A program made the translations under genes and the position numbers. DNA of 64,000 nucleotides. It comes from Escherichia phage vB_EcoM_TH18. Below are positions 18,231 through 21,158 of the stretch, piece after piece (positions within the stretch are counted from its first letter, which is position 1; every line of letters begins with the position of its first letter). The stretch lies in the sequence record ON075799; one strand, 5' to 3'. Under the pieces are notes generated by a model. The model was not told the DNA's origin. It was given only the letters and a program-made list of their open reading frames with translations, and did no database searches.

Positions 18231-21158
18231 ATGAAGATTACAAAATGGGGGGCTGGTGCATACTTTGAAGGTGAGAACCCAAAAGCATTCCGTCCTGAAC
18301 GAAAAAGTGGTGGTAAAGTGAATTATCAGAAAAAAGAAGAAGAAACCGTAGAGTCTGTCCTAGATAGCACAAGGATCCTGGCTGTCCCCCAAATGGATAT
18401 TAGTTTAGATGCAGCTAAGTACTTTAAGATCAGATCTGCAACAGATTTGAAAGACGGCACTACAGTAGTGGCAACATATCTTCCATATTATGACAAATAT
18501 GGGAAATTGACAGGGTACAAGAAACGAGACTGGTCTGTCCCAAAAGAAAAAAAAGGTCATTTCTCTGTTGTTGGCACAGTGAAGGCCTCCTCTCAATTTT
18601 TTGGGCAACATGAAGCCGCTATGGGATCTGGTAAAAAACAGATCTTTATTGTTGAGGGGGAGGGTGATGTAACGGCTGGCTGGCAAGCTGGGTTTGAGTA
18701 TATTAAATTTCTTCATAGTAATCCTAATACGTCACGTTCAGTACGTGAGTGGGCAAGTAATGCTTTAAAAGGCATCAAAGCCATTCAGGATGGCGAAGAG
18801 GTTTCTAATTGCCCGACATTACCTTTTATCGGGTTGAACTGTGGAACAGCCAATGCGGTGGATACATTTGCCCACAACGAAAAGTTTATCAGGGAATATG
18901 AAAAGATTGTCCTTGGTTTAGACAATGATGAAGCCACAGCAAGGGAAAAAGAACACAGAATTAAGAAAGGTAAGGAAGCCACAGATGATGTTGCTAGTTT
19001 TTTGTTGTCTGACAACATCTATGTTGCACGATACCCGAATGAACGCAATGACCCAAATGGTGTTAAAGATATCCGGGATATTTACAAAAAAGGTAAGTGG
19101 ATGGATATCTGGAACATGTTTGCTAAAGCGCAGGATAAATATGTTCCTGACAAATTGATTGGGTTGGAGAGAATATCTATTGAAAATCTCCGTAAAAAGA
19201 AAAAAGATGGCGTTCCGTTGCCTTGCTTTCCTCGTTTGTATGAACTAACAAGAGGCCCACGAACAGGAGAATTGTGGACACTGACAGGCCCATCTGGAGC
19301 TGGGAAATCAACTTTCTCAAGAAAGATTGAATACGCAATTATCGAGTACCTCCGTAACATGGATATTCCCCGACTAGACGGATGGAAAGAGAACGAGAAG
19401 ATTGCAATTATCCGTCTAGAGGAGGATGAAGAGGAGTCTGTAAACAGTCTATATGCTGAGGAGTTAAAAATTGACCCGAAAGCATTTGTTGCAGACCCAG
19501 AGCAATTTCTTACCGATGAGCAGCACTTAGCGATACACCAACGGTGGATTGCCGAAGATAAGGTTAAAATTTTTGACCACTTTGGTTCAATACCGACTGA
19601 CCAATTGCTACAAAAATTGAAACAGATGGTTTTCCTTGATGGGTGCAGATGGATTATCTTAGATCACTTGTCGATGGTAATATCAGGATTAAAATCTGAT
19701 AACGAGCGAAGAGATTTAGATAACATCATGACGGAATTGGCTGCCTTCTGCAAAAAATATGACGTGTTTATCCTCAGTATCAGCCATATGAAGCGTAAAG
19801 AGATACAGATTCCAAAAGATAAGGATGGTAATCTCTTACCATTTTGGTATCCTGTGCGGAAAGAGGATCTTCGTGGTTGTCTTAACGGTTATGTAGAGTT
19901 CCTTACACCAGAAGGTTGGGTGCAGTTAAAAGACTACACACCGGGACAAAAAGTGGCACAGTGGGCAGACGGGGAGATATCTTTTACTGACGATGTTGAG
20001 CACATTAGACTTGAATGTCGAGAGGATATGTATGCATTCCGCAATTCAAGTTTTGAGATGACTGTCTCTGGAGAGCATCGTGTTCTACTGGATGTGGGGG
20101 GTGAGAAACAAGTTCTCACTGCGGAAGAGATTGCTAAACTGGCAAAATACGCTAGTTTTAAAGAACGATCTTCTATTGTCAGACATTACAGTGCTGGCAA
20201 TTTCCAGACATCATTAACAGAATGGCAAATCCGCGCCATGGTGATGTTTGCCGCTGATGGATGCTATCACAGCAATGGTTTGTGTAAGATGGAATTAAGA
20301 AAAGAGAGGAAAATAGAAAGAGCAACTAAAATTCTTGACAAACTTGGCGTGCATTATTCTCACGCAGTAAATAAAAGAGGGAACACAACCTTCAGGACTA
20401 AGGCATTGACAGAGAAAAAACCTCTACATCTATGCCATAATTGGTTTATTGAACCAAGCCATACCCTCAAAATTCTACTGGATGAGGTGTTCTTGTGGGA
20501 CGGTAGCGATAAAGGTGATAAGGGAAGAGAGTTTACTTCTAAGTATCGAGAAGAGTGTGATGTTGTTCAACACGCTGCTCATGCGAATGGAATGAGCACA
20601 AAACTCTACTCACGAACAGTAAATGGTGTTACATACTACACATTAAGTGTGTATCGGGAAGGTTCTTGTAAAAATAAGACATCTTTACGATCTCTTAAAC
20701 TGGAGAGAGAGCCTTCATGGGATGGATATAAATACTGCTTCAAAGTACCATCCAGCTATTTTGTTGTTCGACAAAACGGTGTGGTGTTCGTCACAGGAAA
20801 TAGTGCAGCACTCGAGCAGTTATCATGGGTTGTATTAGGTGTTGAACCTGAAGAACTCCCTGATCGCTCTCGTGGGCGTATTCGTAGCGTTGTAATGAAA
20901 AACCGTCCACATAAAAAATTAGGTATAGCGGATACTCTGATTATGGATGATAATGGTCAGTTTTCTGATGCATCTGGTTGGGTGTGGGAAGATGGTATGT
21001 TTAAACTTAATGGGGAGGTAATGCTAAGACCTAAATCAATGATTCAAAGTCTGGAACTTGAAACACCTGTGGGGAAAATTGCTGTTTCTGTTCCTCAACA
21101 AGAACCTGCTGTTGTTATTGAGCAACCTGAAGATTTAGATAGCGATTCTCCATTTTGA
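18231..21158 (+). CDS. primase-helicase (T7 gp4-like; Toprim + DnaB-family helicase) containing an intein
   Basis: 'EGEGD'/'DND' Toprim-like, Walker A 'GPSGAGKST', Walker B 'IILDH', helicase motif H4 'DLRG/SAALEQ' interrupted by a 308-aa insert. Confidence 0.7.
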   Translation: MKITKWGAGAYFEGENPKAFRPERKSGGKVNYQKKEEETVESVLDSTRILAVPQMDISLDAAKYFKIRSATDLKDGTTVVATYLPYYDKYGKLTGYKKRDWSVPKEKKGHFSVVGTVKASSQFFGQHEAAMGSGKKQIFIVEGEGDVTAGWQAGFEYIKFLHSNPNTSRSVREWASNALKGIKAIQDGEEVSNCPTLPFIGLNCGTANAVDTFAHNEKFIREYEKIVLGLDNDEATAREKEHRIKKGKEATDDVASFLLSDNIYVARYPNERNDPNGVKDIRDIYKKGKWMDIWNMFAKAQDKYVPDKLIGLERISIENLRKKKKDGVPLPCFPRLYELTRGPRTGELWTLTGPSGAGKSTFSRKIEYAIIEYLRNMDIPRLDGWKENEKIAIIRLEEDEEESVNSLYAEELKIDPKAFVADPEQFLTDEQHLAIHQRWIAEDKVKIFDHFGSIPTDQLLQKLKQMVFLDGCRWIILDHLSMVISGLKSDNERRDLDNIMTELAAFCKKYDVFILSISHMKRKEIQIPKDKDGNLLPFWYPVRKEDLRGCLNGYVEFLTPEGWVQLKDYTPGQKVAQWADGEISFTDDVEHIRLECREDMYAFRNSSFEMTVSGEHRVLLDVGGEKQVLTAEEIAKLAKYASFKERSSIVRHYSAGNFQTSLTEWQIRAMVMFAADGCYHSNGLCKMELRKERKIERATKILDKLGVHYSHAVNKRGNTTFRTKALTEKKPLHLCHNWFIEPSHTLKILLDEVFLWDGSDKGDKGREFTSKYREECDVVQHAAHANGMSTKLYSRTVNGVTYYTLSVYREGSCKNKTSLRSLKLEREPSWDGYKYCFKVPSSYFVVRQNGVVFVTGNSAALEQLSWVVLGVEPEELPDRSRGRIRSVVMKNRPHKKLGIADTLIMDDNGQFSDASGWVWEDGMFKLNGEVMLRPKSMIQSLELETPVGKIAVSVPQQEPAVVIEQPEDLDSDSPF
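19878..20801 (+). mobile_element. intein (308 aa) in helicase motif H4
   Basis: begins Cys 'CLNGYVEFLTPEGW', ends '...VVFVTGN' followed by Ser; flanks rejoin to 'DLRG-SAALEQ' (cf. DnaB 'DLRESGSIEQ'). Confidence 0.6.

Follow-up and report, generated by a model that had tools for sequence, protein, structure and literature searches.

A probable homing-endonuclease intein within helicase motif H4 of an Escherichia phage primase/helicase

The window analyzed here, a stretch of 64,000 nucleotides from Escherichia phage vB_EcoM_TH18 (ON075799), contains a gp4-like primase/helicase gene with an insert at 19878-20801 that is very likely (probability of about 0.9) a full-length intein. The N- and C-terminal halves of a Hint domain surround a double-LAGLIDADG homing endonuclease, and the whole element lies in frame in helicase motif H4. 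The insertion is precise, and the fold of the insert, its catalytic residues, its family membership, its sporadic distribution and signs of recombination all agree with this assignment. An intein had already been proposed for this position by a sequence-only reading, which our analysis supports overall.

Host gene and boundaries of the insert

Positions 18231-21158 (+) form one unbroken ORF of 975 amino acids, which matched phrog_239, DNA primase/helicase, in a PHROGs search (E=1.9e-148). The N-extein comprises a Toprim-like region, a Walker A motif (GPSGAGKS) and the motifs through the first half of H4 (...EDLRG). Translation of the insert yields CLNGYVEFLTPEGW...VVFVTGN, preceded by Gly and followed by Ser, in agreement with the 308 residues, the Cys start and the terminus described from the letters alone. 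Its length of 924 nt equals 3 x 308, and the frame is open across both junctions. The individual features are as follows (coordinates, strand, description and basis).

18231-19877 (+): N-extein, residues 1-549 (phrog_239 match, T7 gp4 alignment)
19878-20801 (+): probable intein, 308 residues, precursor residues 550-857, Cys1 to Asn308 (translation, Av-05 comparison, family, model)
19878-20177 (+): N-terminal Hint half, intein residues 1-100, blocks A and B, boundary approximate (model secondary structure, AceL NrdHF profile match)
19878-19916 (+): block A, CLNGYVEFLTPEG, with Cys1 as putative N-terminal nucleophile (Cys1 in 147/148 relatives)
20049-20090 (+): block B, SFEMTVSGEHRVLL, with Ser64 at B:7, His67 at B:10, Arg68 at B:11 and Val69 at B:12 (family conservation)
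20178-20690 (+): homing-endonuclease domain of predicted double-LAGLIDADG fold, intein residues 101-271, boundary approximate
20226-20267 (+): LAGLIDADG motif 1 (block C), QIRAMVMFAADGCY, catalytic Asp127 (Asp in 145/146; ends model helix 115-127)
20301-20321 (+): basic stretch KERKIER, with K142, R144, K145 and R148 (family conservation)
20469-20510 (+): LAGLIDADG motif 2 (block E), KILLDEVFLWDGSD, catalytic Asp208 (ends model helix 194-207)
20691-20801 (+): C-terminal Hint half, intein residues 272-308, blocks F and G (model)
20724-20768 (+): block F, GYKYCFKVPSSYFVV, with Cys287 at F:4 and Pro291 (Cys in 144/146)
20781-20801 (+): block G, VVFVTGN, with Thr306 at G:5, the penultimate Gly307 at G:6 and Asn308 at G:7 (family conservation)
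20802-21158 (+): C-extein, SAALEQLS... to the stop codon, with the second half of H4 and a C-terminal tail (ORF, Av-05 and T7 gp4 alignments)
20802-20804 (+): Ser+1 codon AGT, putative C-extein nucleophile (T7 gp4 Ser489 by alignment)

Removal of the insert joins ...EDLRG to SAALEQ..., which aligns to DLRG/SGALRQ of T7 gp4 (the slash marks the junction) and bears out the claim that H4 is thereby restored. In the alignment with T7 gp4 structures (PVSITDLRG/SGALRQLS against pvrkesLRG/SaaleQLS in the phage), the junction corresponds to T7 G488/S489, the numbering being counted from the alignment. The boundaries are likewise evident from an intein-free homologue: the ortholog of phage Av-05 (KM190144; 666 amino acids, 98% identical) differs by the absence of precisely the same 308 residues and is otherwise undisturbed, TTCTGGTATCCGGTGAGAAAAGAATCTTTAAGGGGA being directly followed by AGTGCAGCACTCGAACAGTTATCG at its empty site. 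Base composition was also considered as evidence and proved uninformative, with a GC content of 41.5% in the insert, 41.1% in the extein and 40.2% in the window.

Family, fold and splicing residues

The search for Hint and homing-endonuclease domains suggested by the sequence-only reading gave a mixed outcome. PHROG families containing inteins matched the insert, while a Pfam and NCBIfam scan, in which PF14890, PF01079, PF13403 and the NCBIfam models were the curated intein and Hint models considered, returned no Hint, intein or LAGLIDADG match at E<=1. The analysis therefore leaned on PHROGs, family profiles and structure. The insert alone gave no match in a word-indexed protein search; an exhaustive HMMER search (E<=0.001) matched it to 3,075 cluster representatives, almost always from end to end, which is far beyond chance. 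When 39 relatives were scanned with Pfam, Intein_splicing matched one and Hint two, and PF14528 (LAGLIDADG) matched 11 (best E=5.8e-6) and not the window copy. A tblastn search of the 64-kb window for a second copy of the family gave none; one is reported for the sequence record outside the window, in the terminase gene (66412-67398).

In the structural model, both ends of the insert together form a predicted Hint fold, the absence of which would have spoken against the sequence-only reading. The part between them is modeled as a duplicated alpha-beta-beta-alpha-beta-beta-alpha endonuclease fold, the two LAGLIDADG helices of which each end in an acidic residue followed by Gly (FAAD127-G and LWD208-G). 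The stretches 'FAADGCY' and 'FLWDGSDKG', previously singled out as possibly LAGLIDADG-like, are both present, and in the model each lies at the end of one of the central domain's two long helices. Within motif 2, W207 is found in 146/146 and D208 in 143/146 family members. K145 of the basic stretch is invariant, and K142, R144 and R148 are each conserved in at least 92% of the family; KERKIER is presumably a DNA-contact or active-site lysine region.

The residues expected for splicing are present in a non-standard combination. Positions S64-G-E-H67 of block B fit T/S-x-x-H, with an invariant His and Ser or Thr at B:7 in 135/146 relatives, and G13 and W14 of block A are conserved among relatives. 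The C-terminal Asn308 is followed by Ser (Asn in 147/148 of the family; Ser, Cys or Thr at +1 in 147/148). A penultimate His (G:6) is common in inteins and not obligatory; here the position is occupied by Gly307, as noted earlier, and by Gly in 146/148 relatives. Those related inteins that have been tested splice better with penultimate Gly than with His (PMC5050341, PMC7891396). Judged against the intein classes, Cys1 would qualify as the N-terminal Cys, Ser or Thr of class 1, and the assisting residues of that class are missing (Cys287 rather than Asp at F:4, no block-F His, Gly307 at G:6). The lack of an N-terminal nucleophile by which class 3 was originally defined is not seen, Cys1 being 99% conserved, and the WCT triplet is matched at two of three positions (Val69, Cys287, Thr306). 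Position B:12 is V, M, I, F or L in the family, and G:5 is Thr or Ser in 143/146 relatives. The window copy itself deviates at two well-conserved family positions, with Val for Thr6 and Asp for Pro39.

Several known systems can be placed beside this intein. In an ungapped alignment to the H4 string of E. coli DnaB, which we take to be DLRESG/SIEQ, the phage insertion site would neighbor DnaB site a, two residues upstream of it. Inteins at site a (Msm DnaBi2, Mtu DnaB) interrupt the H4 DNA-binding loop with Gly-1 and Ser+1 (PMC6195587). They share with the window intein an endonuclease and the G-1/S+1 location in H4 of a DnaB-family hexameric helicase; in contrast to its residue set, theirs is canonical class 1. 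The Ssp DnaB flank 'SIEQD' gave no match in a literature search. The primase/helicase intein of Pseudomonas phages KIL4 and KIL2, whose gene is annotated as a two-piece join in the KIL4 record, belongs to the same family (27% identical over the full length) and resides in a similar host protein, but in the Walker A loop (GSASG/TGKST) instead of H4. PI-SceI, PI-PfuI, PI-PkoII and TliVMA, inteins of known structure that contain an endonuclease, are only 11-16% identical to the window intein and are larger (366-537 residues), with extra DNA-recognition regions.

Further relatives are the mycobacteriophage LAGLIDADG inteins with penultimate Gly described by Kelley et al. 2016 (PMC5050341), which belong to the same sequence family. 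Examples are the RDF intein in gp51 of Bethlehem and U2, whose splicing was demonstrated and whose endonuclease is toxic (PMC5050341), and the TOPRIM/primase inteins of cluster A1, such as that in Turj99 gp53. The Turj99 insert is 29% identical to the window intein over its full length and the U2 gp51 insert 24% (E=1e-10). These inteins and the window intein have Cys1, the block-B His, the block-F Cys, the T-G-N end, a +1 nucleophile and LAGLIDADG in common, and each interrupts a phage replication protein at one of its catalytic motifs. The mycobacteriophage inteins differ from the window intein in host protein and insertion site (metallophosphoesterase HD/S and Toprim EGE/CD versus helicase H4 LRG/S) and in host lineage (actinobacteriophages versus an E. 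coli Vequintavirinae phage).

By profile and by structure, the closest solved splicing domain is that of the split intein AceL NrdHF-1-1 (PDB 6zgq; Hoffmann et al. 2020, PMC7891396). The match was borderline with a single-sequence query (E=0.06), reached 7e-4 with the endonuclease removed and 2.7e-10 with a family-profile query (positions 6-94). Class 3 splicing has been proven for AceL NrdHF, whose triplet is 'MCT' (Met-Cys-Thr); its block B reads S-x-x-H-R, its block F contains a Pro kink and it ends in T-G-N. The roles of its counterparts of the block-B residues have been described (PMC7891396). Its C124/P128 spacing equals that of Cys287 and Pro291. Unlike the contiguous window intein, which begins with Cys1 and encloses a LAGLIDADG endonuclease, AceL NrdHF begins with Ala1 and occurs naturally in split form, its GIY-YIG endonuclease being encoded by a separate gene.

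From these features and relatives we infer that this copy splices and cleaves DNA, and in which order its nucleophiles act. After translation, the intein would excise itself and join ...EDLRG to SAALEQ..., rebuilding H4, the DNA-binding and coupling loop, so that the helicase is presumably inactive beforehand. Splicing would most likely open with an acyl shift at Cys1, followed by transfer of the N-extein onto Ser+1 and cyclization of Asn308. Arg68 (B:11) probably stands in for the missing penultimate His at this last step, Thr306 probably braces His67, and the near-invariant Cys287 may be an assistant or relay nucleophile.

For the same intein, a class 3-type route is possible though doubtful, in which Cys287 attacks the N-terminal junction and the resulting branched thioester is passed to Ser+1, with Cys1 dispensable or merely a relay or redox partner. 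The conservation of Cys287 equals that of Cys1, the G:5 position is nearly always Thr or Ser, and the catalytic set of AceL NrdHF, the nearest solved domain, is that of the window intein except for residue 1. One relative (P0041) has Pro in place of Cys1 and keeps the other family residues, and an N-terminal nucleophile is just 'not required' by the expanded definition of class 3 (PMC5222942). However, Trp is replaced by Val at B:12, the mycobacteriophage relatives are class 1 according to Kelley et al. (PMC5050341), and the presence of Cys1 in all but one of the 148 copies argues that it is used. More tentative still is a two-cysteine type of intein, in which the block-F Cys is an obligatory relay or initiator despite Cys1, or a redox disulfide between Cys1 and Cys287 that gates helicase maturation. 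The signature of such a type in this large phage family may be the combination of Cys1 and a near-invariant Cys in block F with Thr (G:5), Gly (G:6) and Arg (B:11).

Distribution, mobility and remaining alternatives

Besides Av-05, at least 16 other clusters lack the exact 308 residues, each being at least 97% identical, and intein-plus and intein-minus alleles occur side by side among orthologs of at least 97% identity. Phages 18-1-2 (intein-plus) and Av-05 (intein-minus) are 95.6% identical at the nucleotide level. Divergence spikes at the junction in a manner that looks like a co-conversion tract. Some orthologs (P0151, P0233, P0235, P0244) carry a P-loop intein besides or instead of the H4 intein. 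Homing would begin when the endonuclease cuts an allele without the intein, such as the one in Av-05, at the LRG/SAA site; subsequent repair would copy the intein, along with some of the sequence beside it, into that allele.

It is unlikely that splicing is retained while the endonuclease is inactive on the available targets, with inheritance now vertical only. Decay of the endonuclease does occur in the lineage, since one relative (P0185) is a 249-residue deletion derivative at the identical insertion site. The window copy, however, retains both catalytic Asp residues and every conserved basic residue, and the coexistence of both alleles in near-identical orthologs and the divergence spike at the junction speak against an immobile element.

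A degenerate insert that does not splice and stays in the mature helicase, whether a dead intein or an accreted domain, is very improbable. The missing penultimate His, block-F Asp and block-F His and the failure of Pfam to match would fit such a relic, but all family-typical splicing residues are kept, H4 is split at DLRG/S between residues that align to T7 gp4, and relatives sharing the non-canonical residues splice efficiently (PMC5050341, PMC7891396). Removal at the RNA level or a separately translated free-standing endonuclease gene, which the group I introns in the neighboring DNA polymerase gene might bring to mind, is rejected given the continuous ORF across both junctions, the Hint domain that the two ends are predicted to form and an Rfam search within 19878-20801 that matched no family, bar a 20-nt chance match (E=0.067).

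Consequences for annotation and intein evolution

Elements of this kind are ordinary, and an intein within the motif of a phage helicase is unsurprising in itself. The GenBank record is silent on it, and there as in about 35 near-identical database proteins the gene is labeled only 'DNA primase/helicase' or 'DnaB-like helicase'; the databases therefore misrepresent its mature product of 667 amino acids. Pfam and NCBIfam overlook the window copy and most relatives checked, although the family exceeds 3,000 cluster representatives; uncalled inteins are therefore probable in many phage genes for replication, packaging and nucleotide metabolism. Phages 18-1-2 and Av-05 provide a convenient natural pair in which homing and co-conversion can be measured in a lytic E. 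coli phage. In addition, the unusual catalytic set of the family could illuminate how the class 3 mechanism arose from that of class 1.

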